The notes: generated from the letters alone by a model not told the origin. Counted from the first letter of the stretch, positions 5,725 to 50,088 are shown. The stretch is DNA of 64,000 bases from Aulosira sp. ZfuVER01 (GCA_034530615.2 JAVRCV020000041.1:96001-160000); one strand, 5' to 3'. A program made the numbers and translations.

Positions 5725-5837
5725 AAATTACAATTGTAAAGGTTCTTTTATCCTAAAATTACACTAACCATAAACAGATTTATACAATTCAAATTTCTGC
5801 GATCAATTCCTACATAAATGATTTTTTGGCATCTACC

Positions 5838-5882
5838 ATAAATAGATAGGTCTTATTGGCAAAACTAGACCTATCTATTTAT
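5838..5882. terminator. Perfect 16-bp inverted repeat between convergent genes, likely bidirectional terminator
   Basis: ATAAATAGATAGGTCT (5838-5853) / AGACCTATCTATTTAT (5867-5882). Confidence 0.6.
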
Positions 5883-6003
5883 TTTAGAGCATTAATTGCT
5901 GCATTCTTCATCTCATAAGCTTTTTAGCTTATTTTATTGCCCTGTTAAAGATAGAAGCTGATCGATGATTCAGCTTCATTAGAGCAAATTTGAATTAGCT
6001 TAA

Positions 6004-6717
6004 TTAATGTGTATCAGCTATGTGGTTTATCGATGAAGTAAGACTAACATTTGATGAATTTTCTTTTGCAAGTTGTTTTCTTGCTAGTGACAATGCTTGA
6101 TAAGCTGTATTCAATTTTTTTTGGTCCTTAATATTCTTTTCATAACGCTGTAAATAAGCCTCAAGATATCTAATGCGTAAATGCAGATTATCTGTATTCT
6201 GCATGAAAGGAAGATCTGCTTCAGTCATGCAACGGATAACCAGCAAGGGAATAGGGCTGCGCAGTGGACGAAAGTTTGGATTATGTAGACCTGGACTTTC
6301 TGTACGTTTGTGGAATTCTCCTAACATCAGACCTGCATCGACAAAGAAAGGCTTAAGTTTTGCTTGAACAACATCAATTATTTTGGAAGCATCGTCTATA
6401 TTAACATCAGGAAAAACGAATACTATTGCTTTGTTTAGCATAGCTGGCCACTCTTTTGGTTCTAACTCCAAAAAAGTATTTAGGTGAGGTAAAACAATGT
6501 CTGCAATTTGCTGTATATCCAAATCTTTCGCACGAATAACTCTCAGCAAAATGCTATTTAACTTCATGGAAGGAGGAACATAAGGACAAACTGGACCAGG
6601 CCTACCTACATCTGCGTGAGGTTTTGCCACAAAATTTTTCAGCCACTCTGTGATTTCAATAAAATAGGGAAGGTCTTGTTGTAACTGCTCAATCTCATTC
6701 AGTGTGTATAGTTGCAT
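6004..6717 (-). CDS. DUF6875-like protein of unknown function
   Basis: WLKNFVAKPH.DVGRPGPVCPYV and GLMLGEFH...PGLHNPNFRPLRSPIPLLVIR motifs; ATG 6717 is the probable start. Confidence 0.7.
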   Translation of the reverse strand: MQLYTLNEIEQLQQDLPYFIEITEWLKNFVAKPHADVGRPGPVCPYVPPSMKLNSILLRVIRAKDLDIQQIADIVLPHLNTFLELEPKEWPAMLNKAIVFVFPDVNIDDASKIIDVVQAKLKPFFVDAGLMLGEFHKRTESPGLHNPNFRPLRSPIPLLVIRCMTEADLPFMQNTDNLHLRIRYLEAYLQRYEKNIKDQKKLNTAYQALSLARKQLAKENSSNVSLTSSINHIADTH

Positions 6718-7529
6718 CGTGTTCAAATTCTTTTTGTATTGTTTTCGTTGACGAAAAATAGCCAGGTGAATTTTCACCAGACAGGCAGAATTTAAACCAC
6801 GTCTATCTTGAAATTATTAGTTTTTTATAATAAAATTACAAGTCTACAATTGAACCTACAAACGAATAATATACTTTTTAAAAAACTACAAATTTCATGA
6901 TGGACAAGGTTTAGGCTTTTTTTTGCTTGCGTTTTTTTAGCTTTTATCACCTCCACTATTTATATAAATAAATGCTTAAATAAATGCTGCAATAATCGTA
7001 ATTTTCAAGATTTATTACAGCAAAAATATATGAGAAATCGATGTCTTGAAAAGACAATCATTCTCCTAATTTCTCTATATTTTTATTAATTAAAAGATTC
7101 TAAAATATCCTCAATTAATGTAACATAAACAATATTAATGATTTTTCATTTTTTGGATAATTAAATATTTTGTATTTAAGAATTTCCTAGATAAATATAC
7201 ACAGTTTTATGTTTATACTGCTTTTTTTAAAGTAAATTTTATGTATTTTTAAAATACCAAGTTCTCTCTTAAAGATTATCTAAATTATTACGTGTAGCAC
7301 TAGTTTTTATATACAAAGTATGTATGGCATTTTCCAATAATGTTCTTATCCACGTTTCAAGGCATGACTCGCTACAATATTTTGAGATCGCAGTGAGTCA
7401 TGGGGCTTTGTTAGATGATCCCAAAGAAAGTGCGATCGCTAAAGGTTATTTTAAGTAGTGTAGCTTTCAGTAAATAGGAATATTTTTCAAGAGAGTGAAC
7501 CTCAAGATTTTGTAACTCGTAAGCAGGGA

Positions 7530-7680
7530 TATAGGATTCATATTTGATTTTTGAAATACACGTAGGGTGTGTTGTCGCGTAGCGCAACGCACCAAGGTCT
7601 AGAATTCGGTGCGTTACACTTCGTGATAACGCACCCTACACATACTTAAATTTTTTCAGTAATCAAATCGGATTCCTATA
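7530..7680. mobile_element. MITE-like element with terminal inverted repeats enclosing an inverted REP pair
   Basis: TATAGGATTCATATTTGATT / AATCAAATCGGATTCCTATA termini; internal GTAGGGTG..CAACGCACC and GGTGCGTTA..TAACGCACCCTAC. Confidence 0.65.
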
Positions 7681-7886
7681 GATTAATTTTAGTTATGCTT
7701 AAGTAAATTTCAAAACTGTTCACTTTATAGCATATCAATACCTTCAAAAACTTGAGCTATAATGACGACATTTCTTTAAACAAAAAAATTTTATTATAAA
7801 TTAAATTTATACAGCAATTACAAATCATTGATTTTTTAGAACATTACTATTAGATAAGTTGCCATTATCTAAATTAAAGATTTTTG

Positions 7887-8085
7887 AAAAAGGCAGGAGG
7901 CAGAGGGCAGAGGACAGAAGGTTGCAATTAATTGTCAGGGGATTCAAACCCCCACCAATTGCTAACCACCAAATCAGAGATTGTGGTGGGTAACTCAGAC
8001 TATTGCTCCCTTTCAGTCGCGGCACGGAGCTTTATGGATGGGCAAAAGTTCCTTCTGTCTCCTGCCTCCTGCCCGCTGCCTTTTT
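7887..8085. repeat. Inverted GGCAGAG-type heptamer arrays flanking a hairpin-rich core (MITE-like)
   Basis: AAAAAGGCAGGAGGCAGAGGGCAGAGGACAGAAGG ... CCTTCTGTCTCCTGCCTCCTGCCCGCTGCCTTTTT with internal GGGGATTCAAACCCC and ACCACC..GTGGTGG hairpins. Confidence 0.55.
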
Positions 8086-8996
8086 TAGTTGATTGGCGAA
8101 GATTAATTCTAATTTTCTCAAAAAGATAAGTCAGGGTTTAAATTCGTTTTAAACTAATATTTATTACTAAATCGATTAGTGCCAAGTGTGTTGTTTATCT
8201 GAACTAGCGATCGCACCATACTTTGCAACTGTATCTAGACAAAGAATTATTATATTAAATATAACCAATCATTTTAAAATAGATAAAAACATTGAATTTC
8301 TGCTAGAAGCATTATCTGGTTTATCTAAGGTTATTTGACGTTGAACTATATAAAGAAGCTGGTAACATCTCACCTTTGCAAAAATATCAAAAGAAAGTTA
8401 CCATACCATTCGCGAAGCTTTACTCTACGGCATCCACAACTGCTAAATGCGAATTTAAGAACGCTAAAGCCAAAATTTTTTTGCACAATGGCTGGTAATT
8501 CACTAGAATATCTTCCAGAGGTTAGCAATATTCTTAGTTTGCGCAAACCAATAATTTAATCCCGATTACAGATATAAACTGTCGCTTAAGTTACATTCAA
8601 CACGAATTAGTAAGTCTCATCTAAATAATTGAGACAACCTTGTGGTAGCAAAGTATTCATTCACAAGTCTTTAACAATTACTATCTGTACAAAAAGAATA
8701 CGTATTTATTTGGGGTAAGATTTTTTCTCTGCAAAAAATCCTGCTAAAAACATAGATGATTGAAATAAGACTGACAGAATGTTTACCTGTGATGCTGAAC
8801 GAAACACACTTTAATAAGTAATAAGCTAAATTATATGCTTTGCCAACTCTGTGTTCAGCATGACAGAATTACGTTGTTATGCGTAAGTCCTGTTAAAATT
8901 TTTGGTTTATCTGACGAACTCTAGGAAATTAGTATGAACGCCAAGCAGTTACACGGGAAGCAGCTTTATCGTCAAGGTGTTAGAGGTTAAAAGCGA

Positions 8997-11177
8997 ATGG
9001 GGCGATTTGAGAAGCAACCAGACAACCCGCGAGTTAGAGGCGATTTATCCAGAGCAGCCGAAAATGCTCTCTGGGCAGTTGTTGAGGACTTAGAAAATCT
9101 TCAGCAGCACGTACTGCGGTCGTTACAGGAAGAAGTAAAGCGGCTTCAGGCGGAAAAAAATCGTTTAAGTGATGATATTCAACGACTGCTTGATGAGAAA
9201 GAACAGTTACAACAGGCGCGCCAAATCACCGAGCAGCAGGTGTTAATCCGTCAGTTAGCAGAAGCTTTGGCAAAGCATATATCTTCGCAACTGCAATCCT
9301 CGTTGACGACTTTAGCTAACCAAGCAATAGAGACTAACTCCTCTGAAAAAGCAACTTTAGGCTCAGAACAGAACAATGAAAAAGTAGAAAAACTGCTTGG
9401 CTCCCTAGATGATACCCTCACCATCACCTTTACCTCACTGCAACAAGAGCTAAAGAACTATCAAAGCAATCTTTCCCAACAGTTGTCTAGGATGCAAAAT
9501 CAACAACAGCAAGGGGAAGCGATCGTAGCGGAGTTAATCAATCGGTTGCAAGATCTGGAAAAAACAATTGTAGAAACTCCACTAAAAGCCGTACAAGTAT
9601 CACCGCCTACTGTGTTGCAGTTATCTGAGCAGCCAAAAGCCAAAGTCTCACCACCCACAGTTTTGCAACTACCGCAAGAGCAACAAAACATTTCTTGGAA
9701 TTCCCCGCAGTCAGAACAGAAAAATAGCCAAGCTACCGAAGCCCTGACATTTACTCAGAGTCAAACTGCTTTACAGCCGGAGAGTTTAGCAGCACCACCA
9801 GAAGCAACTGTCACCGAACCAAGTTTTGTCATTTCTCCAGATTTGTCGGAGAGTGAATCTACACCGGAGCCTACTTTACCTTCCACGGAAGTAATATATC
9901 CACCCTTCAGGAGAAATGACCCTGAGCCAAGTTCTGTGATATCTGGGGATGCGTTCGAGAGTGAATCTACATCGGAGTCTGCTTTTCCATTACCAGAAGC
10001 TACTCCCCCACCAGTCAGGAATAATCCTGATGAGCCAAGTTCTGTCATTTCCCCAGATTTTTCGGAGAGTGAAACTACACCGGAGCCTGTTTCATCCCGC
10101 AAGCAGGGAGTAGCACCACCATCACTAAGTTTACCTAGTTCATCAAGCTTATCGTCTATTCAGATAGGTTTTGTGCTGATTGTGTTGTCAGCGGTAGTGT
10201 CATCGCTTTACAACGTAGCTATTAAGGTGATTTTTCACCAAGGTTCTGAGATTCTGGGATTAGTGGAAGTAGAGCGTTTGCTATTACCAACTTTAGGCAA
10301 TACGCTATTAATTTTAATGCTGCGGTTATTGGTGGTTGTACCGCTAATGTTGCTGTTAGCGCCGATGATGCATCCACGAGTATGGGAAGACTTACAAACA
10401 CTATTTAGCTCAGTACGTGGAAATTCTTCTGCTAGCAATAACAAGACACGAAAGATTTTGCAGTTATCGATCGCTAGCGGATGTTTTTTGTTTTTATCGC
10501 AAGTGCTGATTTACATTGCTATCAGCCAAGTCACTACTGGGATGGCGATCGCACTTTTCTTTATCTATCCAGTAATTAGCGGACTCTTGTCTTGGTTTTT
10601 ATTCCGCGATCGCCCTAGCAGATTCCGCACTGCTGCTATTGGTGGTGTTTTTTGCGGCGAGTTGCTGATATTGGGAGGTGCTACCAGCATTGCTCTTGGT
10701 AATGTTCCCCTCGGAAGTATTACAGCAATTTTGTCAGGAGTAGCTTTTGCTGTCTACGTCGTCCTCACACGCATTTGTGCTAGCAAACTGCATCCGGTTT
10801 CTTTTACTTTGATTAACTTCGCCACCATGTTGCTGTTAAGTTTGATCGGTTTGATGATACCTTTACCCAGCGACTTAGGTTTAGTTATCGACAAACCCTC
10901 TAAGTTATTGGAAATTATTTTAAGTGCTTTTATTTTGGGTGTCCTAACTCTCTTAGGCTACGTGTTCAATAATGTTGGCATTCGCAAACTAGGTGCGCCA
11001 CGTTCGGCAATTATCGGTGCAAGCGTGCCATTCTTAACTGTGATTTTTGCTGGGTTGCTGATTCAAGAAAACTTAGAGCTTGCACAAATTTTGGGAGTGG
11101 TGCTAGTAACTTTCGGTGCAGCAGCTTTTAGCTTTGACAAAGTGCGAAATCAGCTTAATTCTAATCCACCCAATTAA
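8997..11177 (+). CDS. sepJ: Septal junction protein SepJ (FraG)
   Basis: N-terminal coiled coil (MGRFEK..ALWAVVEDLENLQQ), Pro/Ser/Glu-rich linker, C-terminal DMT/EamA permease domain; upstream of hetR. Confidence 0.93.
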   Translation: MGRFEKQPDNPRVRGDLSRAAENALWAVVEDLENLQQHVLRSLQEEVKRLQAEKNRLSDDIQRLLDEKEQLQQARQITEQQVLIRQLAEALAKHISSQLQSSLTTLANQAIETNSSEKATLGSEQNNEKVEKLLGSLDDTLTITFTSLQQELKNYQSNLSQQLSRMQNQQQQGEAIVAELINRLQDLEKTIVETPLKAVQVSPPTVLQLSEQPKAKVSPPTVLQLPQEQQNISWNSPQSEQKNSQATEALTFTQSQTALQPESLAAPPEATVTEPSFVISPDLSESESTPEPTLPSTEVIYPPFRRNDPEPSSVISGDAFESESTSESAFPLPEATPPPVRNNPDEPSSVISPDFSESETTPEPVSSRKQGVAPPSLSLPSSSSLSSIQIGFVLIVLSAVVSSLYNVAIKVIFHQGSEILGLVEVERLLLPTLGNTLLILMLRLLVVVPLMLLLAPMMHPRVWEDLQTLFSSVRGNSSASNNKTRKILQLSIASGCFLFLSQVLIYIAISQVTTGMAIALFFIYPVISGLLSWFLFRDRPSRFRTAAIGGVFCGELLILGGATSIALGNVPLGSITAILSGVAFAVYVVLTRICASKLHPVSFTLINFATMLLLSLIGLMIPLPSDLGLVIDKPSKLLEIILSAFILGVLTLLGYVFNNVGIRKLGAPRSAIIGASVPFLTVIFAGLLIQENLELAQILGVVLVTFGAAAFSFDKVRNQLNSNPPN

Positions 11178-12403
11178 ATTGGTAGTAGCAGCTAACCCAC
11201 CCTACTTTAAGATACTCAACTTCTTGCAGACAGTTGTAGGGTGGCTTGCCGCAGGAAAGCGACTGGCATAGCAGAGAGCAGAGGAAAGAGAATTTTGGTT
11301 TTTTACATAGAATTATTTGTTAATATTATGACACCATTGTGTGAGGATTTGGCTCTACCAATCTTTAGCTCAACTGCGGGGCAGCCATTTATCTCTACAA
11401 AAAATATAATTATACGTTTTATAAGTATAATTATTTACTTTGATATGTTTTCTACGATCTGTGCAGCAAAACTATATATTTATTAATTATTTTTATCTAT
11501 ATTGAAATTTATTACAATCTTTATGCCCTGTATCAGTTATTGATTTTTTTGATTATAAATAGGTTTAAGCCGTTAGTGGTAAAGCCCCTGGCAAATACCT
11601 GGTACTCAATTTATTTAACAAAACATAATTGTATAACTGGTAGCATACTGTTAAAATCAAATGCTGAGTTAAATTCGGTCAGATAAAACCTAATAGTTCT
11701 ATTGGCATAGTTGGCCCTGACATTGAAAAGCAATTTCATAAAATCTTTGTTAAATTATTCTTGGTTAGTGTTGATTCTGCTAGATTTTATCAAGGTTGAA
11801 GTTATTGCCAAAATTGGCAAATTATAATTCCGTCTTGTTAGCCATTGCTCAGTCTTTCAATTTATAAATCAATCAAGCTCATAGCAGTTAAGCTATCAAA
11901 ACCTGCTAAACATGAGATGCGCTTGCCGTCTTCACCTTTTAAGAAAATAATTGCTGCCGAAATTGTTTGTTTCAGCAATTACAGAGAATCTCACGTTAGT
12001 GAAGTACACAATATAGGCCTTTAAGTCAAATAGAAAGCCTGTTTTACTTCTAAATTCTGAATTCTGCTGTAATTATTTCCAACGAAAAAACTTTGGTATT
12101 AAATAATGCCATTAGTTATCCTTATATCCTTAAAATTCAACCAAAATCTAAATTTTGTTGCGTCTTAATTCATCAAGTGCAATTCATTGACTTATTTGGG
12201 TGAGAAAATTATTGATCTATGGGAAGTTTACGAATGCAACCTTGGCATTGTTACAAATCTTAGCCTCCCAAACCGATATTTTCCTTCTTTGATAGATACC
12301 TGAGCTTGTAGGTGCAGAAGACTGGTTGGTAAATCATTGCAGCCCTTAATCTAGTCCTTTTTTACCTCACTATCAAGTGCGCGCTTCTTTAAAGGAGGCT
12401 TTA

Positions 12404-12769
12404 ATGAAACATATTTTAGTTGTAGATGATTCGGCAACAATGCGGCGGATGGTGATGGCATCGCTGCGAGATTTAACAGATGTGAGTTTTACCCAAGCCA
12501 GTAACGGTTTAGAAGCGATTGAATCCTTGGTAATCGCACCAGTGGATTTGATGATTTTGGACTTAAATATGCCGGAAATGCACGGACTGGAAGTATTACA
12601 GTTTGTGCGCGCACATCAAAACTATGACAAAATTCCCATCATTGTTTTAACTACCAGAGGCGATGAAGCAAGCCGTACCGCAGCGCTGAATGCTGGTGCG
12701 TCGCGCTATTTAACAAAACCATTTGAACCTCAGACATTTGTTGTTGAGGCACAGGATTTATTGAATTAA
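12404..12769 (+). CDS. cheY: CheY-like single-domain response regulator
   Basis: ILVVDDS, DLNMP, T and KP receiver motifs; AAGGAGG RBS before ATG 12404. Confidence 0.85.
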   Translation: MKHILVVDDSATMRRMVMASLRDLTDVSFTQASNGLEAIESLVIAPVDLMILDLNMPEMHGLEVLQFVRAHQNYDKIPIIVLTTRGDEASRTAALNAGASRYLTKPFEPQTFVVEAQDLLN

Positions 12770-12785
12770 ATATCGAGAAAATTAC

Positions 12786-14948
12786 GTGTCTACTACTGAT
12801 ACAGAAACCAACAATTTATTCGTTGAATTTCTTGACGATTATTTTGCCGAATCAGAAGAACACCTAGCGGTTATACGCCAAAATTTACTGACGCTGGAGG
12901 CGTTTGTAGATCGATCGAGTATTGAGCGATCGCTAGTTGACGAACTTTTCCGCAGTTTTCACACACTTAAAGGTCTGTCAGGCATGGTTGGCCTCAAAGA
13001 GGCAGAGCAACTTGCACACCAAATGGAAAGTTATCTACGGGAACTGCGCGACAACCAAGTAGTTCTCACAGCACAGGGAATGGATGCCCTGATCGGTGGC
13101 ACCAAAATGTTGGATCTGACGATCGCCAACCACCGTACCCATAATCCACTGCCTGATATCGCGCCTGCGATCGCTAAATTAACAGCTGTGTTTACCGATG
13201 ATTCTTCCCCAACAGGGGATGGAAATGAAGAGATAGGGAAACAGGGAAATGGGGTTGTACAAGAGGCAAAGACAACCAGATGCGAAGCCGATCAAATTTC
13301 CCCTGCTGTGCCACTGCTGAAACTTAAACCAGAAGAAAGCGCGCAGATTGCTGCCGCCCTTGCTAGCGGCAAACAGGCTTGGTGCTTTACCTTCATGCCT
13401 AACGCTGCACTCGCCCAACGCGGAATCAACGTCAACAACTTGCGCCAACGCTTACAATCAATTGGTGAACTAATTCACGCCTCGCCACGAATGACTGCAA
13501 CTGGCGGTGTTGTGTTTGATTTTGTCGTCGCTACCCAGACAGATCCAGAGACATTTGCTAGCTGGCATGAAGACGGACTGAGCTTTACGCCCTATTTGGA
13601 AGAAGCAAGAGAGCAGGAAGCAGGTGAGGAACAAGAAAAAATACCAGCAGAACTTCCTCCATCTGTTGTCAGTCTCCCTATTTCCCCATCAGCCTCTTCT
13701 CCCGTTACCCCTGCTACTGCATCGTCAAATTTTGTGCGTGTGGATTTAGCACGTTTGGATGAATTGATGCGGATGGTGGGCGAACTGGTAATTAGCCGCG
13801 CTCGCTTGGAAGATAACCTGAACCGCTTACCCAATACCGTTCCTGCGCTGCAATTACGTACCTTGAGAGAAACTAACTTAATGCTTGAACGCCAGTTGCG
13901 TGAGTTGCGCGAAGGCGTGATGCGAGTGCGTTTAGTACAGATTGGCGAAATTTTCGCACGAATGCAATTTGTCATCCGTGACATAGCACGAGAAAGTCAA
14001 AAGCAGATTGCCCTCGAACTCAGCGGTCAAGATACGGAAATTGATAAATTTGTAGTTGAGCGGATGATGGAACCGCTTTTGCATCTGGTACGTAACGCCG
14101 TCAGTCATGGCTTGGAATCTGAAACTGAGCGGATAGCACGGGGTAAATCACCAGCCGGAACGATCGCCTTGCGCGCTTCCACCGCCGGAGAAATGGTGGT
14201 GATTGAAATTGAAGATGATGGGCGTGGCGTTGACTTAGAAAAAGTAGTTCAGCGTGCGCGATCGCTAGGGTTAATTGGCTCTGAAGTCCAACCCGACGCG
14301 GCTACTGTGCTGGATATCATCTGCTCATCTGGCTTTTCCACCCGCGAAGAAGCTGATTTAACGAGTGGACGCGGCGTGGGTATGGCAGTCGTGAAAAATA
14401 CGGTGCAAGAACTGGGTGGCTTTTTGACGCTCGATACCCAAGTTGGCATCGGTACACGTTTTAGAATTCAACTGCCACTGACTTTGGCGATCGCAGATGC
14501 GCTGATTGTCTCTGTCGGCGGGCAAACTTTTGCCGTACCACAATCTTCGGTGCGTGAGGTTTTGGAAATACAACCCAACGCGATCGCCAAGTTGGAAAAC
14601 AACGAAATTTTTTCCTACCGGGGCAGTGTATTACCACTGGTTCGCCTTGCTGGCTGCTTTGGGTTAGCTGAATCTCAAACAACAGGAAATTACCGTTGTT
14701 GGCACGCGATTGTAGTTGGTAACGGCTTAAATGCCGTAGCTATCTTGGTAGATCGCATTGTTGGGCAGCAAGAAATTGTCGTGCGTCCCCTAACAGATCC
14801 CCTAGTTCAAGTCATGGGCATTGCTGGTGCAACTGAACTCGGTGATGGGCGCGTAGTTTTGATTCTTGATACATCTGCTTTATTACAAGTTGCCAGGTTA
14901 GCAAGTTTGAAAGTTGGCAAGTTGAAGAGTTTAAAAGCGGTTAATTAG
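12786..14948 (+). CDS. cheA: Chemotaxis histidine kinase CheA
   Basis: HPt LFRSFHTLKG, dimerisation VRVDLARLDELM, HLVRNAVSHG, DDGRG, SGRGVGM, C-terminal CheW domain; no receiver domain. Confidence 0.95.
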   Translation: MSTTDTETNNLFVEFLDDYFAESEEHLAVIRQNLLTLEAFVDRSSIERSLVDELFRSFHTLKGLSGMVGLKEAEQLAHQMESYLRELRDNQVVLTAQGMDALIGGTKMLDLTIANHRTHNPLPDIAPAIAKLTAVFTDDSSPTGDGNEEIGKQGNGVVQEAKTTRCEADQISPAVPLLKLKPEESAQIAAALASGKQAWCFTFMPNAALAQRGINVNNLRQRLQSIGELIHASPRMTATGGVVFDFVVATQTDPETFASWHEDGLSFTPYLEEAREQEAGEEQEKIPAELPPSVVSLPISPSASSPVTPATASSNFVRVDLARLDELMRMVGELVISRARLEDNLNRLPNTVPALQLRTLRETNLMLERQLRELREGVMRVRLVQIGEIFARMQFVIRDIARESQKQIALELSGQDTEIDKFVVERMMEPLLHLVRNAVSHGLESETERIARGKSPAGTIALRASTAGEMVVIEIEDDGRGVDLEKVVQRARSLGLIGSEVQPDAATVLDIICSSGFSTREEADLTSGRGVGMAVVKNTVQELGGFLTLDTQVGIGTRFRIQLPLTLAIADALIVSVGGQTFAVPQSSVREVLEIQPNAIAKLENNEIFSYRGSVLPLVRLAGCFGLAESQTTGNYRCWHAIVVGNGLNAVAILVDRIVGQQEIVVRPLTDPLVQVMGIAGATELGDGRVVLILDTSALLQVARLASLKVGKLKSLKAVN

Positions 14949-14977
14949 ATCGGTATTAAAAATTGTCGCGATCGCAA

Positions 14978-15199
14978 GGCAGAGGGCAGATGGCAGAGGG
15001 CAGAGGGCAGAAGAAAAAGCAGGGGACAAAGGGGACAAGAGAGACAAGGGAGACAAGGGAGACAAGGGAGACAAGGAAGCAGGGGAGGAAAGAATAACTA
15101 TTGCCCAATGCCCAATGCCCAATGCCCAATGCCCAATGCCCAATGCCCAATAACAAATGACTAATGACTAATGACTAATGACTAATGACTAATGACAAA
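14978..15199 (+). repeat. Compound short tandem repeat (STRR) array between cheA and cheW
   Basis: (GGCAGAG)n, (GGGAGACAA)n, (TGCCCAA)x7 at 15102-15150 and (TGACTAA)x5 at 15158-15192 in one heptamer phase. Confidence 0.9.
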
Positions 15200-15213
15200 T
15201 AAGGAATTTCATC

Positions 15214-15705
15214 ATGTCAGATTCGCAAACAATTTCTGAACCTTTTATTCTTTTTGAGCTTGCAGGCACAATCTACGCCATGCCTACGAAGGTCGTTCAA
15301 CAGATGGAAATGGTTGAACGGATCACGCCAGTACCAAATGCAGCACCTTTTGTTGAAGGTGTAGTATTTTCTCGCGGTAAGGTGATCCCCGCAATCAATC
15401 TGCGCTCACGATTCGGGTTTGAGAAAATTCCCTACGACGCACGCACGCGCTTGATTGTCATTCACACTAGTAACCGCACAGTTGGCTTAATTGCTGATAC
15501 TGCCAGAGAATTTGTTTCGATTCCGAAGAGCGCCATCCAACCACCACCGGAAGGAATTAGCGGATTAAGTGGCAAGTATTTGTCAAGTATTGCGAATTTA
15601 GGCGATGCCTCCAGCGGGCAAAGCCAACGCATGGTGTTGATTCTCAATCCTGACGAAGTGCTGAATATGACCAGCACTATCTCACCTGTAGCAGTAGGAA
15701 ATTAA
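15214..15705 (+). CDS. cheW: CheW adaptor protein
   Basis: ITPVPNAAPFVEGV..RGKVIPAINLRSRF, VGLIAD. Confidence 0.92.
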   Translation: MSDSQTISEPFILFELAGTIYAMPTKVVQQMEMVERITPVPNAAPFVEGVVFSRGKVIPAINLRSRFGFEKIPYDARTRLIVIHTSNRTVGLIADTAREFVSIPKSAIQPPPEGISGLSGKYLSSIANLGDASSGQSQRMVLILNPDEVLNMTSTISPVAVGN

Positions 15706-15792
15706 TTATTTAAAAATGTATTTCCGTTTTTAGTTTTTAATTTCATTTTTTCATAGTTCATTGATTGAAACTTTGTTAAATAGGAAAATCTC

Positions 15793-17919
15793 ATGGCAAA
15801 AAAATTTCGCAATTCTAATGGTCATACTGCTAACGGTAATCACAATAATTCTCACGATAGAGACACAATAGTTCGCGATTCTCGAGCTTTTGAAATCACT
15901 CGCGTTCGCGACCAAGCAGAACAAGTCAGCCATGCCGCCGATCAAATTTCGCGGACGATGGATCAAATTTCCTTGGGTGCAGACTCACAGTTGCGATCGC
16001 TCGATGAAACTGTCAGTGGCACCAACCAAATGGTGGTATCCCTCAAAGAAACTGCTAATCAAGCCGAATCAATTGCAGGTTCTACCGAAGAACTCATTTC
16101 ATCAATTAATGAAATGGCAGCTTCCATCGAACAAATTACCGCTACTACAGTTGATACCGCCGCAGCCGTTAATCAAACAGCCAGTTCCATCCAAGAAACA
16201 ACCAATTCAATTCGCTCTGTTGCCGATACTGCCCAAGAAATGTCAACTTCGGCTTCCCAAGTCTCTGCCTCAATGACCGAAGTCTCTGCCTCGGTGAAAA
16301 GCGTCAGTCGAGATACAGAAGTACTTGCCACCTCAATCACCGAAACTGCCGCTTCCATCGAAGAAATGTCCCGTTCAATTCAAGGTGTAGCGCAGAATGC
16401 TACCGATTTGACTATATCTGCCGAAACGACTACTAGTTCAATCAACGAAATGGCAGCTTCCATTGAGCAAGTCTCGGCAACCACAGAAAACTTAGCGGGG
16501 ACGGTAGAAGAAGTCTCTACTTCCATCGAAGAAATAGCGCGATCGGTCGAGGGAGTAGCACAAAACGCTGCCCAAATCACCGAAGTGGCAACAGGCGCTG
16601 CTACCAGTGCGATACAACTCGATCGCTCGATCCGTTCAGTCACAAATCTCACCAAACAAGCCGATGAAATCACCAAACGGGTAGCGCGGAATGCTGAAGT
16701 TGGCGGGGTGACGGTAGAAAAATCAATTCAAGGTTTGAATCGCGTGCGTGACTCAATAGTGCAATCCGCTGACGTTATCCGAGATATGGGCAAGCGCACC
16801 CACGAAATCAGCAGCATTGTCGATACGATTAATTTGATTGCCGAACGCACGAATTTACTGTCGTTAAATGCCTCGATTGAAGCCGCACGCGCTGGGGATG
16901 CAGGGCGAGGTTTTGCCGTCGTTGCGGAGGAAATCCGCAACCTTGCCGAACGTGCCGCTCAAGCAACCACAGACATCGGCACGATCATTAAAGGGCTGCA
17001 AGATGTAGTGCAAGAAGCCGTCACTAAGTCGAACGATGGATTGCGGGTTGCTGACGAAAGCAGTCGCCTGGCTGAAAATGGCGTGAACGGTTTAAAGACA
17101 ATCCTCAAAGGAGTGGAAGAAACCACAGAAGTAGTGCGTCAAATTAGCCATGCTGCTGACGAACAAGTACTGGCGGGACAGACTGTGGTGAATGCAATCA
17201 ACACTACGGCAATGCAAGCCAAAGAAGTGGCGATCGCTACTTCTGAACAAGCCAAAACAACCCAAGGCATTGTTAAGTCCACAACACAAATGCGTAAAAT
17301 TGCCCAGCAAGTTTCCCAGGCAATGAACGAACAAGGACGAGCAGCACGGGACATTATCAAAGCAGCGCAAAATACCACTACCTTGGCAATGCAAGTCAGC
17401 AAAGCCACCTCAGAACAAGCTAAGGGCGCGAATCAAGCCGTGCAAGCAGTAGAATCTATGCGGCGTGGTGCAGCAAACACAACCCGCGCCATCGCTGAAC
17501 AATCCACTGCTAGCGACCAAGTTGCCAAAGAAGCTGAACGCCTAGCACGCCTGATTGCCAACGTCACCAAGGCTATGAACGAACAAGCCACCGCTGCCAC
17601 ACAAATTACAACGGCAGTAGACAATTTGCGACGACAATCCGATCAAACTGCCAAAGCAATGAACGAACAAACACGCGCCGTTAAAGATATGACCTTTGGC
17701 GCACAAAACATTTCAAAACAGATTGGCATGATTACCCGCGCCAATCGAGACCATTCCAATGCCTCAGCCGGAATTCTCAACTCTCTGGCAAATATTCGGC
17801 AAATTAGCGATCGCAATTTCCAAGGAGTCAAAGAAACTCAACGCGCTACTGCTAGTTTGCTAGAACGCTCTCAAGCTCTAGGCGAAATCATGGATCGCAT
17901 GAGTAGAAACGGTAATTAA
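15793..17919 (+). CDS. Soluble methyl-accepting chemotaxis protein with very long coiled-coil hairpin
   Basis: IAERTNLLSLNASIEAARAGDAGRGFAVVAEEIR signalling tip near the protein centre; no TM segment or recognisable sensor domain. Confidence 0.93.
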   Translation: MAKKFRNSNGHTANGNHNNSHDRDTIVRDSRAFEITRVRDQAEQVSHAADQISRTMDQISLGADSQLRSLDETVSGTNQMVVSLKETANQAESIAGSTEELISSINEMAASIEQITATTVDTAAAVNQTASSIQETTNSIRSVADTAQEMSTSASQVSASMTEVSASVKSVSRDTEVLATSITETAASIEEMSRSIQGVAQNATDLTISAETTTSSINEMAASIEQVSATTENLAGTVEEVSTSIEEIARSVEGVAQNAAQITEVATGAATSAIQLDRSIRSVTNLTKQADEITKRVARNAEVGGVTVEKSIQGLNRVRDSIVQSADVIRDMGKRTHEISSIVDTINLIAERTNLLSLNASIEAARAGDAGRGFAVVAEEIRNLAERAAQATTDIGTIIKGLQDVVQEAVTKSNDGLRVADESSRLAENGVNGLKTILKGVEETTEVVRQISHAADEQVLAGQTVVNAINTTAMQAKEVAIATSEQAKTTQGIVKSTTQMRKIAQQVSQAMNEQGRAARDIIKAAQNTTTLAMQVSKATSEQAKGANQAVQAVESMRRGAANTTRAIAEQSTASDQVAKEAERLARLIANVTKAMNEQATAATQITTAVDNLRRQSDQTAKAMNEQTRAVKDMTFGAQNISKQIGMITRANRDHSNASAGILNSLANIRQISDRNFQGVKETQRATASLLERSQALGEIMDRMSRNGN

Positions 17920-18033
17920 TTGCACAAGGCAGTCCCAATGCCCCTATGAGTGCTGAGTAGTTTACTTCTTGACTCAAAACTCAGTACTCGGAACTCGGAA
18001 CTGTTTTGCCCAATCCCCCATCCCCAATGACAA

Positions 18034-18666
18034 ATGACAACTGACCATACATTAGATATTGCCATTCAACTTGCCAGCCCTGATGAAGAAATACGACTGC
18101 GAGCTGCTCAAACACTAGCTACAGCTGAAGTGAACGACGCTGAACAAATGCTTGTAAGTGCCTTGGGCGATGCTAGCTGGCAAGTGCGAAGGGCGGTAGT
18201 AAATAGTTTGATTCAGCGCCAAGGGACATCTACTGGCACATTGCTATTGCGATCGCTCCGCCAACATCACCACAACCCCAGTATCTTAAATGGTGTGTTA
18301 CAGGTGTTAAACCACTACCATATAGACACTGTTCCAGCGCTGATTGAATGTCTCAAAGATGCCGATGTGGATTTGCGGATCTATGCAGCACAAGCATTGG
18401 GAGGACAGCACGACAACCGCGCCATCCTCGCCCTCATCTGTGCTCTAGAGGATAGCAACATAAATGTGCGCTATCACGCGATTGATGCTTTAGGGCATCT
18501 ACAGGCAGATGAAGCAGTGGCAGCAATGTTAAAGATTGCCAAATCAGGGGATTGCTTTTTAGCGTTTGCGGCTCTTGATACCCTCAAGCGCATCGGAGAT
18601 CGCACAAAGATACCTCTGCTGGAAGATGAAATCTTCCATACCAGCGCTGCTAATACCCTTAGTTAA
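18034..18666 (+). CDS. HEAT-repeat (PBS lyase-like) protein
   Basis: Repeated L..D.D..VR..A..ALG units. Confidence 0.85.
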   Translation: MTTDHTLDIAIQLASPDEEIRLRAAQTLATAEVNDAEQMLVSALGDASWQVRRAVVNSLIQRQGTSTGTLLLRSLRQHHHNPSILNGVLQVLNHYHIDTVPALIECLKDADVDLRIYAAQALGGQHDNRAILALICALEDSNINVRYHAIDALGHLQADEAVAAMLKIAKSGDCFLAFAALDTLKRIGDRTKIPLLEDEIFHTSAANTLS

Positions 18667-18818
18667 TTGAGAGATCCAAAATAGGAAGTTAAAAAAACAA
18701 CAAACAAATCTTTAGATTTATAGCAGTTGCCGCTTCTCTCTAAATTTATTTATGGGGATTCCCCTTCTGCCTCCTACCTCCTGCCTCCTGCCTTCTTAAT
18801 TTTTAGAGTGAGTTAGTA

Positions 18819-19682
18819 ATGCAACTAATGTCAAAAAACTTTTTAACAAATCCAACTTTATCTGATAGCACGTTCATACTGTTGCGTGACTTAATTCACG
18901 AACGCATCGGTATTCACTATGAAAACTCTATGCGCGATTTGTTCGCAGAAAAGCTTTCACCCAGAGTGAGTGCTTGTAGTTTGGATTCATTTTTAGACTA
19001 CTACTACTTGCTGAAATATGACTCAGCAGGGGCATCAGAGTGGAAGCACTTAATGGATGCTATTTCAGTTCAGGAAACTTTTTTCTGGCGGGAGATGGAT
19101 CAGGTGCGGGCGCTGGTGGATGTGTTGGTACCCCAACATTTTGCTAGAAATCCGTTAGAGCCACTGCGGATTTGGAGTGCTGCTTGCGCTACTGGGGAAG
19201 AACCACTGACGATCGCTATGGCTTTGAATGAAGCAGGCTGGTTTGAGCGGGCACCGATTGAAATTTACGCCAGTGATGCTAGCCCAAAAGCGATCGCTAA
19301 AGCAAAAGAGGGTGTATACCAGCAGCGTTCTTTTCGGAATTTATCACTCACCTTGCAGGCAAAATACTTCCAGGAAGTACAGCACGGCTGGCGAGTGATG
19401 CCAGAACTCCATTCGCGAATTCAGTGGCAGATAGCAAATTTGATGCTACCAGATGAAATTAAGCATTTAGCCACCGCATCGGTGATATTTTGCCGAAATG
19501 TATTTATTTACTTTTCAGAAAAAACGATCGGTCAAACAGTGCGCTTGTTTTTTGAGGCGATGCCAACACCAGGATATTTATGTATTGCCGCCTCAGAGTC
19601 CCTCTTGAAGCTAACAACTGATTTTGAATTGCAAGAGATAGGAGGTGCATTTGTATATGTAAAACCGGAGCGAGCAAAGTAG
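18819..19682 (+). CDS. cheR: CheR protein-glutamate methyltransferase
   Basis: ETFFWRE, IWSAACATGEEP, VIFCRNVFIYF. Confidence 0.93.
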   Translation: MQLMSKNFLTNPTLSDSTFILLRDLIHERIGIHYENSMRDLFAEKLSPRVSACSLDSFLDYYYLLKYDSAGASEWKHLMDAISVQETFFWREMDQVRALVDVLVPQHFARNPLEPLRIWSAACATGEEPLTIAMALNEAGWFERAPIEIYASDASPKAIAKAKEGVYQQRSFRNLSLTLQAKYFQEVQHGWRVMPELHSRIQWQIANLMLPDEIKHLATASVIFCRNVFIYFSEKTIGQTVRLFFEAMPTPGYLCIAASESLLKLTTDFELQEIGGAFVYVKPERAK

Positions 19683-19709
19683 AGCTCGGAGTAAAAAATC
19701 AAGAAGATC

Positions 19710-20756
19710 ATGGAGAAAGTAGTTCGTGTTTTGGTAGTAGATGATTCTGCCTACATCCGCAAGGTAATCAAGCAGATGTTATCCCGCAACCCGTTGATTG
19801 AAGTTGTGGGCATTGCTCGTGATGGCAAGGAAGCTTTGGAATTGGTAGAGCAACTTCATCCTGATGTGGTGACAACGGACTTAATTATGCCCACTATGAA
19901 CGGGGTGGAGTTCTTACGCGAGCAAATGAAGCGGTGTCCAGTGCCAACGATCGTTGTCAGCATTACCGACGAGAATACTGAAATGGCGCTGGAGGCACTT
20001 GATGCTGGGGCAGTTGATTTTGTGCAGAAGCCAACTGCACTGGCAACAGAAAAAGTCTTAGAAATCAGTGACGAGTTGATCCAAAAAGTACAAGCTGCTA
20101 CCAATGTGCGCTTGCCAAAGCTAGCAACTATACCGACATCTCGTGCAACAGTTTCACCTTTGGTACGTACACGCAACAAATTAAGGGCGGTGGATATTGT
20201 CGTCATTGGAATTTCCACTGGTGGCCCCCAAGCTCTCAATTTTTTGATTCCCCAGTTGCCGCAAAATCTGAGCGTGCCTGTGGCGATTGTCTTGCACATG
20301 CCAGTTGGTTATACGCAAATGTATGCCGACAGGCTAAATGAGATTTCGCCACTCAAAGTAATAGAGGCACAGGAAGGAGATGTAGTAGAAGCAGGTGTGG
20401 TGTTAATTGCTCCTGCCGGACGGCATCTGAGCTTCATCCGTCAAGCTAATGGCACCGTAGTCACCCATCTAGATTTCCGTCCCTTCGATATGTTGCATCG
20501 TCCGGCGGTGGATGTATTGTTTCAATCGACAGCAGAAGTGTTTGGCGATCGCGTCTTGGGTGTAGTGATGACTGGCATGGGGTCAGATGGCAAAAAAGGT
20601 GCAGCTTGGATCAAAGCCCAAGGAGGCTTGATATTTACTGAAGCTGAGTCAACCTGCGTCGTCTATGGTATGCCGCGATCGGTAGACGAAGCAGACTTGA
20701 GTGACAAAAGCGTGCCGCTCAACCAAATGGCAACAGCAATTCTGGAGGTGCTGTGA
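19710..20756 (+). CDS. cheB: CheB methylesterase with receiver domain
   Basis: N-terminal REC; GISTGGP, VLHMP, MTGMGSDG (Ser-His-Asp triad present). Confidence 0.95.
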   Translation: MEKVVRVLVVDDSAYIRKVIKQMLSRNPLIEVVGIARDGKEALELVEQLHPDVVTTDLIMPTMNGVEFLREQMKRCPVPTIVVSITDENTEMALEALDAGAVDFVQKPTALATEKVLEISDELIQKVQAATNVRLPKLATIPTSRATVSPLVRTRNKLRAVDIVVIGISTGGPQALNFLIPQLPQNLSVPVAIVLHMPVGYTQMYADRLNEISPLKVIEAQEGDVVEAGVVLIAPAGRHLSFIRQANGTVVTHLDFRPFDMLHRPAVDVLFQSTAEVFGDRVLGVVMTGMGSDGKKGAAWIKAQGGLIFTEAESTCVVYGMPRSVDEADLSDKSVPLNQMATAILEVL

Positions 20757-21121
20757 TGGCGAAAATTTTGATAGTGGATGATTCTAGCCTATCCCGCCGC
20801 ATGATGCGGGGAATCTTGCAATCAAGCGGGCATGAAGTGATTGAGGCGACCGATGGCATCGCTGCGATCGAAAATTATTTTCTGGAAAAACCCGATTTGG
20901 TCTTGCTCGATCTAGTGATGACCGGAATGCAGGGAGAAGAAGTACTAGAAAAATTACGCCAAATGGATGAAAATGCCAGGGTAATTGTCGCTAGTGCCGA
21001 TATTCAGACTTTTACACACACAATGGTTGAGAAAGCAGGGGCGGTAGGCTTTATTAACAAACCATTTGTGGCTGCTAATGTACTCAACACCGTGAATGCA
21101 GTGCTACAAGGAGAGTCGTAA
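20756..21121 (+). CDS. Second CheY-like response regulator
   Basis: ILIVDDS, LLDLVM, KPF; TGATG overlap with the cheB stop; GGAGG RBS. Confidence 0.85.
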   Translation: MAKILIVDDSSLSRRMMRGILQSSGHEVIEATDGIAAIENYFLEKPDLVLLDLVMTGMQGEEVLEKLRQMDENARVIVASADIQTFTHTMVEKAGAVGFINKPFVAANVLNTVNAVLQGES

Positions 21122-21747
21122 TGGTACTGACAGATGAACAAAAGGATGCATTAACTGAATTAATTAACATTGGCTTCTCACGCACTGCCTCTTCACTCTC
21201 AGAACTAACAGGCTACCGAGTGATGCTGGACGTACCCCAGATTTCCATTCATCCGATTCGAGAATTAGCTCCGAAGCTAGCCACTTTTGTGCAAGGTGAA
21301 GTTGCTACGGTACAGCAGATTTTCAAGGGACCTGTATCAGGCAACGCCTTATTGCTGTTGAACTATGAGGGAGCCGTGACGCTTACAGATTTATTCACAC
21401 CAGAGAACAACCTGCGTACCCATCGCCTGGATGCCGCAGCTAGCGAAGTACTGACCGAAGTTGGAAATATTCTGTTGAACGCTTGTCTGGGAATTTTTGG
21501 TAATCTGCTAGAAATTCAAATTTCTTTCTCAGTACCGCGTTTGCATCTGGAAGCGCTAGATGGACTGCTCAACTCCCTTGTCATTGGTAAGGAAGAATTG
21601 CGTTACGCGATGGTGATTTATACAGCCTTTCACATCCGAGAAAACTCGGTGAGTGGATATTTAGTCATGGTGTTGGGCGTTGCCTCCCTAGAGTGCTTGA
21701 TTCAGGCCGTAGACAGATGGGCAAACGTACCAATTTACAACGGATAA
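21121..21747 (+). CDS. cheC: CheC-like phosphatase
   Basis: Two E-x-x-N motifs (DALTELINIG, EVLTEVGNI); TAATG overlap with the upstream gene. Confidence 0.85.
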   Translation: MVLTDEQKDALTELINIGFSRTASSLSELTGYRVMLDVPQISIHPIRELAPKLATFVQGEVATVQQIFKGPVSGNALLLLNYEGAVTLTDLFTPENNLRTHRLDAAASEVLTEVGNILLNACLGIFGNLLEIQISFSVPRLHLEALDGLLNSLVIGKEELRYAMVIYTAFHIRENSVSGYLVMVLGVASLECLIQAVDRWANVPIYNG

Positions 21748-21750
21748 ATT

Positions 21751-23721
21751 ATGGAGAGCTTGAGTCAGGTCGTACAACAAAACGAAATCATGCTGCACTG
21801 GCTGAATGACCTTGCAGACCAGGGTATCTTGATTACGGATACTGAATTGAAGATTCGGAGTTGGAACCATTGGTTGGAAATCCACACCGGGTTAAGCAGT
21901 ATAGAAATCATTGGGCGCAATTTACTAGAAGTCTATCCAGAACTTACCCAGCGTCGATTAGATCGTTTTTATCATCAAGCATTAAACGGTCAAGTCGTGG
22001 TACTCTCGCAACGCTTACATGGTTATCTACTCCCGATTCCATCAAGGATCGACAACGGCATATCACCGTATATGCTACAAAGTGTACGCATTGCACCTTT
22101 AATAGAAAACGGTTGCTGCATCGGCACAACTACTGTGATTGGTGATGTAACTGAACGGGTAATACAAGAGGCAGAACTACAACACCAAATTGAGGTACTA
22201 AAACGCGCAGAAGAGCAACTACAAGAACAAGCTGCCCTGCTCAACATTGCCACAGACGCGATTATCGTTCAAGATTTAAAAAACCAAATTGTATTCTGGA
22301 ACAAAAGTGCCGAGCAGTTGTATGGTTGGACAGCCGAGGAAGCCCTAGGCAAGCAAGCTAATCAGCTTTTATACCAAACAACTTCACCTCAACTCAAAGA
22401 TGCTCTGCTCAACATTACCCAGAAACAGGAGTGGCAAGGCGAACTGCGTCAAGTGACAAAAGACGGCAGGGAAGTCATCGTTGAAAGCCGTTGGACAATT
22501 GTACCTGACTCGCAAAAAAACCCAAAATCAATACTTGTTGTTAATACCGACATTACCCAGAAAAAACAACTTGAAGCCCAGTTTCTGCGTATCCAACGAA
22601 TGGATAGCATTGGTACCCTTGCTGGTGGTATTGCACACGACCTCAACAATCTGCTAACACCAATTCTGACAGCCGCTCAACTTCTACAAAAGCAAGTTTA
22701 TCCTGATAACAAGCACCAGCATTTGTTATCAATGATCGAAACCAGCGCTAAACGTGGAGCTAATTTAGTCAAGCAAGTGCTATCTTTTGCACGAGGAATT
22801 GAAGGAAAGCATACAGCTATTCTGGTAGGCGATTTAATTTCGGAAATTCGGCAAATTGTCCAAGCAACATTTCCTAAGCCAATTCAAGTTTACATTGGTG
22901 AGATTCCCAAAAATCTTTTGCCTATTTCTGGAGATTTTACGCAACTGAGTCAGGTTTTTATGAACCTGTGTGTAAATGCTCGCGATGCTATGCCCGATGG
23001 CGGTATTCTGACTATCTGTGCAGAAAATATTTTCATTGATGAAAATTATGCTCGGATGAATATTGAAGCTAAAATTGGTTTTCACGTTGCCATTACTATT
23101 TCAGATACAGGATCTGGTATTTCTCCCACAATAATAGATAGAATTTTTGAACCATTTTTTACGAGCAAAGAGTTTGGACAAGGTGCAGGGCTTGGTCTTT
23201 CAACTGCAATTGGGATTGTCAAAAGTCATGGTGGTTTTGTAAATGTACGCAGCGAAGTGGGAAAAGGAACCGAATTTAAGGTGTTCTTACCAGCAGCACC
23301 GGAATTCCAAACGCCGCCACTAGATGACTTAGATCTGGTAAAAGGGCATAGAGAATTGATCTTAGTTGTGGATGACGAAACCTCAATTCTAGAAACTACA
23401 AAAATATCGCTGGAAGCTAATAACTATAGGGTGCTAATAGCCCACGATGGAATTCAAGCGATCGCACTGTATGCCCAGCATCAACATAAAATTAGTATAG
23501 TGTTGATGGATATGATGATGCCCTCAATAGACGGTCTGACAACCATTCGGACGTTGCAAAAAATTAATCCGCAGGTCAAAATTATTGCCTCTAGCGGATT
23601 CGCTTCCAGTTCAATGAAAGCTGAAGTTACTAACCAGGGCATTAAAACATTTTTGTCGAAGCCTTACACTATGCAAGAATTATTGTCAAGCATTAGTGGA
23701 GTTTTGAGTTGTCAAGGCTAA
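21751..23721 (+). CDS. PAS-PAS hybrid histidine kinase with C-terminal receiver
   Basis: Two PAS domains, GIAHDLNN H-box, NLCVNARDAM, GAGLGL, C-terminal ILVVDD..DMMMP..KP. Confidence 0.92.
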   Translation: MESLSQVVQQNEIMLHWLNDLADQGILITDTELKIRSWNHWLEIHTGLSSIEIIGRNLLEVYPELTQRRLDRFYHQALNGQVVVLSQRLHGYLLPIPSRIDNGISPYMLQSVRIAPLIENGCCIGTTTVIGDVTERVIQEAELQHQIEVLKRAEEQLQEQAALLNIATDAIIVQDLKNQIVFWNKSAEQLYGWTAEEALGKQANQLLYQTTSPQLKDALLNITQKQEWQGELRQVTKDGREVIVESRWTIVPDSQKNPKSILVVNTDITQKKQLEAQFLRIQRMDSIGTLAGGIAHDLNNLLTPILTAAQLLQKQVYPDNKHQHLLSMIETSAKRGANLVKQVLSFARGIEGKHTAILVGDLISEIRQIVQATFPKPIQVYIGEIPKNLLPISGDFTQLSQVFMNLCVNARDAMPDGGILTICAENIFIDENYARMNIEAKIGFHVAITISDTGSGISPTIIDRIFEPFFTSKEFGQGAGLGLSTAIGIVKSHGGFVNVRSEVGKGTEFKVFLPAAPEFQTPPLDDLDLVKGHRELILVVDDETSILETTKISLEANNYRVLIAHDGIQAIALYAQHQHKISIVLMDMMMPSIDGLTTIRTLQKINPQVKIIASSGFASSSMKAEVTNQGIKTFLSKPYTMQELLSSISGVLSCQG

Positions 23722-24287
23722 GATATTGTTTGGTTAAAGACTATAAAATAGCCAGTTTTGCAGTTGGAAGACAAATCTTCTCACTAGTATCAGTAGTAAG
23801 TTTGAGTTCCCAATCTTGAACTCAAAGTTTTCTTGCTGAGTACGGAGATTTATTACCTCTACTAGCTAACGTCTACATAGAGTTCAGTCGTAGCAGATTA
23901 TATTTACGCCATCCGATCTAAAATCCTGTTTATCATCCCTAGGTAAAAAATAGGTATAAGCATATATCTTGCATTAAGTTATTTATGTAACAAATTTTTG
24001 ATATTGGCTGTAAGGCTCTACTTATCGTAGCATCCCACCTATTCATGGCATTGAAAGGATGAAGTTGACAATAATTACAGTATTTTTACTGATAAAGGCT
24101 AAATAAATAGCAGCAAAAGTCATCTTTTGAGCTATGTGCTAGAAATTACGCGGAAATTCATAATTTTGACTAGCAACAACCTTATAGTTGAAGCATAATA
24201 AATAATCTGGAGTGACAATATTGCCTTCAGTCGGGTGTATACTACTTACTTTCCTACGGCTAATAAATTTGTAAACGTGCTATTTAA

Positions 24288-25199
<912 letters not shown>

Positions 25200-38588: not shown

Positions 38589-38622
38589 TTTTTAATTTTT
38601 AATTAAAAAGGGTAGTAAGATT

Positions 38623-42849: not shown

Positions 42850-42869
42850 ATTTAAATAGGGTTTTGTAG

Positions 42870-44041: not shown

Positions 44042-44216
44042 CAAAATAAGAGTTTAGATGCCATAGTATTAGCCTAATTTTGTTTTTTGAGAGATAAAAA
44101 TGTCATCAAAATTCTTAGATCTCTTAGCAAGATTGGCAGATTTATCTGTTTTATGCGTTGCCAATAACCGATAAAATAATTGAAATAATATATTTACAAA
44201 AAAATTAGAGGTAATT

Positions 44217-50014: not shown

Positions 50015-50088
50015 ATTTATGCCATTAACACTAGTAATACTTCAAAAATCAAAGAAAAACATTGAGCACAATTTTTGGAGAAACATAA

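Follow-up and report, generated by a model that had tools for sequence, protein, structure and literature searches.

The 64,000-nt stretch of Aulosira sp. ZfuVER01 DNA analyzed here (JAVRCV020000041.1:96001-160000, below called the window) carries, between sepJ and hetR, a chemosensory cassette of ten open reading frames (ORFs), all on the + strand between positions 12404 and 23721. ORF calling together with Pfam and NCBIfam scans gave the domains expected for each, confirming the ten co-oriented genes that had been listed in an earlier note made from the sequence alone. The first, cheY1 (12404..12769), encodes one receiver domain (Pfam REC, with the acidic pocket and the Asp, Thr and Lys motifs) and holds the position of CheY7 in the Che7 system of Myxococcus xanthus. 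It is followed by cheA (12786..14948), the product of which has an HPt-dimer-HATPase-CheW architecture with the HPt His motif and without a C-terminal receiver, by cheW (15214..15705), and by the gene for a soluble, sensorless chemoreceptor of 708 aa with an MCPsignal domain (15793..17919). Next come a HEAT-repeat ORF of 210 aa (18034..18666), which comparison with the PAS-HEAT protein of relatives showed to be a remnant, a stand-alone cheR methyltransferase gene (18819..19682), cheB encoding a receiver plus methylesterase (19710..20756; NCBIfam CheB over cut-off), cheY2 with one receiver domain (20753..21121), a gene for a cheC-family phosphatase with two active-site motifs (21121..21747) and, finally, a gene for a soluble hybrid kinase of PAS-PAS-HisKA-HATPase-REC architecture (21751..23721), having as its first PAS domain (aa 25-140) a cheC-linked subtype.

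Gene content of the cassette and its copies

The last four genes are coupled, as had been noted before, with junctions of -4 nt (cheB/cheY2), -1 nt (cheY2/cheC) and +3 nt (cheC/kinase), the remaining junctions being 16-265 nt. Short tandem repeats of host type (7- and 9-nt units) are found in two stretches of cluster spacer, at 15022-15198 and 18006-18047. Judged by catalytic motif patterns that we take to be the valid ones for these families, all motifs were intact, including the HPt His of CheA, the Ser, His and Asp of CheB, the CheR motifs, both receiver pockets, the two CheC sites and the kinase boxes; the intact CheR and CheB bear out the claim that the system is competent for adaptation.

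Of 389 genomes of the window's family searched with CheR or CheC as the query, two had the cassette, namely the window's own and G033, and it was found in 0 of 14 congeners searched. By HetR identity and repeats, this family is presumably Nostocaceae. In an even draw from the order, a match was obtained for 52 of 373 genomes outside the window's family and for 0 of 27 within it. Records of Acidobacteriota, Verrucomicrobiota, Syntrophobacteraceae and Bacteroidetes were added by a genome-collection scan, so that the cassette is known from five phyla in all, the cyanobacteria and four others, and a representative-library search gave unnamed matches only. Gene order was read in 33 distinct other carriers (5 carriers, a further 20 chosen from the 52 order matches, and 8 from the genome-collection scan, with one duplicate and one unrelated match excluded), and the core order was conserved in these 33, followed by a tail of cheY2-cheC-kinase, cheC alone, another kinase or nothing. 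Among the tail variants were a tandem cheC pair in G055 and G441 and, in G503 and G520, a second and divergent cheY-cheC-PAS set located beyond the cassette (loci L036, L116, L109 and L110). The receptor also had a match on a Gemmatirosa kalamazoonensis plasmid (NZ_CP007130.1:428534-430390; 54% over 87% of length), the sole one at E 1e-60 among 72,556 plasmid records. An incomplete literature search gave no account of the cassette in cyanobacteria, and an earlier description is possible.

The receptor has no transmembrane segment (best 19-residue hydropathy 0.84, compared with 2.87 for SepJ), and the domain scan found no sensor domain in it. Its hairpin tip lies at residue 369 with 339 residues beyond, corresponding to about 48 heptads per arm, and the arm after the tip was 319-371 aa long in 33 of 33 copies, as compared with 121-146 aa in the eight other receptors of the genome. 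A periodicity of 28 and 56 residues runs through both arms, the 28-residue repeats carry methylation-like EQ/EE sites, and there are 4 strict and 11 relaxed methylation-site matches. If unbroken, the hairpin would thus comprise about 96 heptads and measure roughly 50 nm. Chemoreceptor hairpins are known with up to 64 heptads. The cytoplasmic hairpins described in PMC2577667 have 24-44 heptads, a range of classes (24-44H) that the cassette receptor does not match, with 36H and 44H receptors being about 21 and 26 nm long. Because the receptor is without a sensor domain, its input could tentatively be proposed to be not a ligand but a physical or stress cue from within the cell.

The HEAT gene is a single ORF of 737-1109 aa in 27 of the 32 other copies having this position covered, split in two in one and absent in four. 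The ORF of the window, by comparison, is about a quarter of the usual length and matches residues about 125-335, being devoid of the N-terminal PAS domain and of about 580 C-terminal residues, and the cluster is therefore not complete as had been claimed. The PAS domain at the N-terminus of full-length homologues was detected by Pfam in 2 of 4 scanned and by our own profile; it is lacking also in the HEAT gene of G033. In G060 (L033:10962-14273) two genes of the opposite strand stand at the HEAT position instead, a kinase gene and one that is presumably KaiC-like by its start sequence, and cheY1 was not called there.

A decaying passenger, in which the HEAT loss was the first step of pseudogenisation and the remainder is no longer used, would agree with an ORF that stops inside a repeat with homology continuing for three codons past the stop, with the failure to find the missing remainder elsewhere in the genome at comparable identity, and with the absence of the cassette from all 14 congeners. 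The nine other ORFs are nevertheless full length with intact motifs, and in eight of them, the kinase excepted, deviation in conserved columns was no greater than in orthologs (0 of 85 such columns changed in CheR). Compared with a near-identical relative from an independent soil metagenome run, 24 of 31 changed codons were synonymous, with about 24% expected by chance, a count taken from listed differences in low-depth short contigs of one run, with 18 further differences unlisted. Four other carriers, moreover, keep the core though lacking the HEAT gene. We hence regard decay as unlikely, and the best reading of these comparisons is that the cassette appears still to be under selection.

Relationship to known chemosensory systems

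The HEAT gene of the Che7 system in M. xanthus is, as we take it, MXAN_6961 (Cpc7). The tables of PMC3945109 give Che7 as MXAN_6965-6959 in the order cheY-cheA-cheW-mcp-[6961]-cheR-cheB, with a CheA of 683 aa lacking a receiver, an Mcp7 of 821 aa with its domain at 317-534, a CheR of 273 aa and a CheB of 348 aa. The match in gene order to which the earlier note had pointed thus holds and extends to protein sizes, as the likewise receiver-less CheA of the cassette has 720 aa, its CheR 287 and its CheB 348; Mcp7 is also listed there without a transmembrane segment and has 287 aa after its listed domain (PMC3945109). The cassette differs by its additional cheY2-cheC-PAS kinase tail, the same tables listing one CheY for che7, and by having no intact HEAT output when judged by the 737-1109 aa of its relatives. 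PMC9040617 reports a HEAT-repeat partner for Che7, and this HEAT protein, the reported output of Che7, is truncated in the present copy. Because of the defective HEAT gene and the extra tail, and since the comparison covered gene order, sizes and architecture, the cassette is Che7-like, not Che7.

The cyanobacterial systems of the type IV pilus (Tfp) class (Tax/Pix/Hmp/Ptx) share with the cassette the host and the MCP-CheW-CheA core, but they are described as having PatA-type regulators without CheR and CheB (bioRxiv 10.1101/2021.06.11.447907) and CheAs that mostly carry a receiver domain (PMC10782961). The cassette, in contrast, has CheR and CheB, no PatA and no CheA-receiver fusion, and its CheA falls in a separate clade. 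A C-terminal CheA receiver, lacking here, is according to the same source common also in the class of alternative cellular functions (ACF; PMC10782961). As to the flagellar classes F1-F17 (MiST), FliM had no match in the host genome (99.99% complete), leaving no flagellar switch target. The Geobacter alpha and beta clusters were rejected as a match, as they have no mcp gene (PMC2577667).

Possession of CheR and CheB is, contrary to what had been supposed, not exceptional for this cyanobacterium, as both are present in four of its seven CheA clusters, i.e. the cassette and three others. Two of these (C33 and C7) have receiver-fused CheAs that fall outside the cassette clade, and the C7-type CheR has matches of 55-75% identity at 9 of 24 loci of relatives. 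Another, C73 (G000:C73:52522-63767), has a receiver-less CheA, with cheA-cheW-mcp-cheB-cheR on the - strand and a divergent cheY-cheC-PAS kinase set. Its cheA and cheW are separated by a CRISPR-like array (20 repeats, mostly at a spacing of 70-78 nt), and its cheA and cheY by an ORF that is presumably IS1-like; its CheR and CheB give an 89% match to G006.

In a CheA tree of 37 rows, the cassette CheAs formed a clade of their own (100/99) that excluded the six other CheAs of the genome, three of which are PatA-linked, in agreement with the earlier claim that this CheA is unlike the Pix/Tax/Hmp type. Within that clade the window grouped with G564, a member of another family, and with G033 (100/94), inside 25 cyanobacterial rows that had a support (94/98) just below our threshold; outgroup branches were long, making the order among outgroups unsure. 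The same grouping was obtained with a concatenated CheA-MCP-CheR-CheB tree of 33 rows. HIP1 sites numbered 13 in 11.3 kb (1.15 per kb), compared with 0.96 per kb for the genome and 0-0.14 in six non-cyanobacterial copies. The share of guanine and cytosine at third codon positions was high for most cassette genes (90th-98th percentile), and likewise for hetR.

Recent import from a non-cyanobacterial donor was rejected in view of the HIP1 density, the host-type heptamer repeats and both trees. Lateral acquisition, as claimed before, thus holds insofar as the cassette is a derived insertion, but not in the sense of something foreign to cyanobacteria, given its presence in other families of the order and the closest copies being cyanobacterial. 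The simplest reading of these data is that it was likely transferred from another cyanobacterium and then resided for long in its present host; that it was present from early on and lost from almost the whole family would be less parsimonious.

Could the pathway modulate type IV pilus gliding of hormogonia alongside the PatA-type systems? The absence of pilus genes from the window, pointed out in the earlier note, is correct but uninformative, since the genome elsewhere has three PilT-family matches over cut-off. The presence of these genes would agree with such a function, as would the filamentous groups to which many cyanobacterial carriers belong (one labelled Oscillatoriales) and the altered social motility reported for an M. 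xanthus cheA7 deletion (PMC3945109). Against it stand the lack of a PatA-type regulator and of a CheA-receiver fusion, the separation from the three PatA-type CheAs, and the occurrence of the cassette with the same kinase output in unrelated phyla, and we consider this function quite improbable.

Position between sepJ and hetR

The left-flanking gene (8997..11177, + strand), a host gene outside the cassette, is presumably sepJ (fraG), a name backed by its EamA domain and by synteny; in 15 relatives, the gene preceding hetR was 51-88% identical to it in the best match of the C-terminal part. The right-flanking host gene hetR (24300..25199, + strand; NCBIfam HetR over cut-off) is co-oriented with the cassette and starts 578 nt beyond its end. 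When hetR neighbourhoods were compared in 20 of the 46 relatives having a hetR match, sepJ ended 459-2051 nt upstream of hetR without che genes between in 15, other genes lay upstream of hetR in four, and a contig end cut one; among 13 congeners, sepJ and hetR were adjacent in nine, the arrangement was different in three and one was cut. The native upstream region of hetR (23755..24299, + strand) is retained in the window, where an alignment with G006, G003 and G009 begins at about 23755-23800 and extends as far as hetR, whereas the AT-rich spacer of 1226 nt before cheY1 (11178..12403) had no match to any relative's sepJ-hetR spacer. From these two observations together, the cassette is, as far as genome comparison goes, a derived insertion that lies before the leader of hetR, and the spacer likely came with it and holds its promoter.

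The insertion junctions and the 3' end of the HEAT ORF are known from this one assembly, and the soil-run contigs over the cheW-to-hetR part included none spanning the whole stretch. No terminal repeats or target duplication stood out at the cassette boundaries, no transposase- or integrase-sized ORF was found in the flanks, and scans for promoters and terminators gave matches at the level of chance (15 versus 24.3 expected, and 17 versus 12.8, respectively).

A second, unrelated insertion of ~2.7 kb (5731-8416, GC about 30-34%) lies between a PHO4 phosphate-transporter gene and sepJ; it holds a DUF6875 ORF (6004-6777, - strand) and is absent from G003, G006 and G009. In G013, G012 and G011 (L050, L051 and L053), among the relatives closest by HetR (99%), other genes lie upstream of hetR and sepJ was not seen within the stretch examined. 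The region thus seems to be often rearranged. Elsewhere in the window we noted a run of signalling genes at 35843-44609 with a ComA-family gene (42870-43643), an ORF without a Pfam match (37446-38588), and a UbiA prenyltransferase gene (49100-50014) followed, within 49100-51483, by a further gene that we assume to be P450-like.

The earlier note had tied this position to cell differentiation, with the pathway feeding heterocyst, akinete or hormogonium development. Such a role would find some support in the co-orientation and closeness of the cassette to hetR, in the coupling of aggregation and sporulation by Che7 that PMC9040617 reports, and in a single GTA-N8-TAC box at 11425, upstream of cheY1. 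This NtcA-like box was, however, dismissed as chance, about 0.4 being expected per 1.2 kb of AT-rich DNA by our own estimate. Furthermore, 387 of 389 family genomes are without the cassette, and none of the 33 other carriers had sepJ or hetR beside it, in stretches that extend beyond it by only a few kb and in some cases stop at contig ends; the position therefore varies among carriers, an outcome that the earlier note itself had named as speaking against its proposal. In G033 the cassette lies about 2.9 Mb from hetR, and the carriers G044 and G060 gave no hetR match at E 1e-40 (92% complete). The retained native hetR leader and the truncation of the HEAT protein that is tied to the Che7 phenotype add to this. 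No evidence was found for control of heterocyst development by the cassette, a differentiation role seems to us highly improbable, and the adjacency to hetR is most likely incidental, the outcome of a chance insertion. The sepJ-hetR position is in that respect a distraction from the main interest of the cassette.

CheC, a shared PAS subtype and the proposed pathway

The two active-site motifs of CheC lie at residues 9-39 and 109-139. Both fit the pattern D/S/E-x3-E-x2-N-x22-P, which we presume to be that of the family, and E13, N16, P39, E113, N116 and P139 were invariant in 61 of 61 aligned rows. The CheC profile matched Thermotoga maritima CheC (2f9z) at E 1.6e-27, the likeness to the T. maritima/Bacillus subtilis proteins (2f9z, 1xkr) being full length and including two E-x2-N-x22-P motifs. 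In contrast to those systems, cheD is missing from the ten genes and FliM gave no match in the genome; the gene that comes after cheC nearly always begins, instead, with one particular PAS subtype. In copies without cheY2 (L035, L112, L114, L119, L120, L123 and L124), cheB is followed by a divergent CheC (37-46% identity) that has the second active-site motif only. The cheY-cheC-PAS kinase module may also be linked to H-NOX gene clusters.

That PAS subtype is common to the PAS-HEAT proteins and the kinase. A profile built from the N-termini of 21 PAS-HEAT proteins matched the first PAS domain of the kinase at E about 1e-22, the two being 35% identical, and elsewhere in the genome it matched only the cheC-adjacent kinase of C73 (4e-10), such that the two CheCs of the genome pair one-to-one with its two PAS domains of this subtype. 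With loci counted if having at least 600 nt downstream, and metagenome loci being the best 80 of 515, a PAS domain of this subtype lay no more than 1.5 kb downstream from cheC at 60 of 65 loci, comprising 46 of 49 metagenome loci, mostly copies of the same cassette, and 14 of 16 loci in the phylum of G763, mostly at 30-39% CheC identity. In the reverse test, using the cyanobacterial draw, cheC lay just upstream of 9 of 11 strong PAS matches as compared with 0 of 5 weak ones. A model of the domain gave a confident PAS fold (pLDDT 91), and profile and fold matches to solved structures revealed no close cofactor family; the best profile match, also among the top fold matches, was the PAS domain of a Vibrio cholerae sensory-box kinase (3mxq; E 1.2e-12), which is only about 20% identical. 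The cheC-PAS pairing was not found described in an incomplete literature search, and it may have been described earlier.

These pairings could also be explained if the PAS subtype were a small-ligand sensor or a PAS-PAS dock between HEAT protein and kinase, with CheC merely a CheY phosphatase. The 35% identity of the two PAS types, the occurrence of PAS-HEAT without cheC in several copies and the ordinary PAS fold of the model would suit that explanation, which however leaves unexplained why distant CheCs outside the cassette mostly precede the same subtype, and why the kinase was kept here after loss of the HEAT PAS. We find it rather unlikely.

Considering the conserved core order, the rarity within the family, the trees, the HIP1 density, the intact motifs, the cheC-PAS pairing and the absence of FliM, we hold it to be somewhat more probable than its opposite that this is a non-flagellar, Che7-like cassette, likely derived from another cyanobacterium and likely signalling through CheY2-CheC to the hybrid kinase. 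As the HEAT gene is truncated, signalling likely proceeds via the intact CheY-CheC-kinase branch. In the pathway envisaged, the long receptor would form a predicted cytoplasmic array with CheW and CheA, and CheA would, by analogy with known chemosensory pathways, pass phosphate to CheY1, CheY2 and CheB, with the 28-residue repeats of the receptor being the sites of tuning by CheR and CheB. From nothing more than gene pairing, CheC may be proposed to capture and dephosphorylate phosphorylated CheY2 and to dock on the first PAS domain of the kinase, turning a Che signal into a two-component signal. The Che7-type branch, from CheY1 to PAS-HEAT, would likely be crippled here. As CheY7 is reported to matter for temperature-stress resistance and viable spores (PMC9040617), stress physiology may by analogy be guessed as the output.

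Some observations weigh against these conclusions, in addition to the marginal clade support and the thin basis of the synonymous count given above. Of nine changed codons in the HEAT remnant eight were synonymous, and the remnant may thus be functional in some way. No cheC was found within 1.5 kb of 2 of the 11 strong PAS matches, and many cyanobacterial copies keep only PAS-HEAT without cheY2-cheC-kinase, so that the PAS subtype must also work without a neighbouring cheC. The pairing counts, finally, are linked by gene-order kinship and are not independent.

More speculatively, and as a joint proposal that we would not expect to hold in full, CheC could be a CheY~P-gated adaptor for a dedicated PAS subtype, wiring chemosensory arrays to kinases and giant PAS-HEAT scaffolds, with a sensorless receptor of ~50 nm having about twice the usual methylation helices as input, and with the window representing a natural mutant in which the HEAT branch was dropped and the CheC-PAS-kinase branch alone remains.

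The findings raise the questions of what stimulates a sensorless receptor of about 96 heptads and whether a signal is passed by CheC-family proteins to a dedicated PAS domain; the present copy, in which most of the HEAT protein is missing, isolates the CheC-PAS branch in a heterocyst-type host. They also show a classical, adaptation-equipped chemosensory class to be widespread in cyanobacteria, whereas the systems in the cited papers are without CheR and CheB. If the proposal is true, it would amount to an undescribed chemosensory output, carried by about one in seven genomes of the order outside the window's family.

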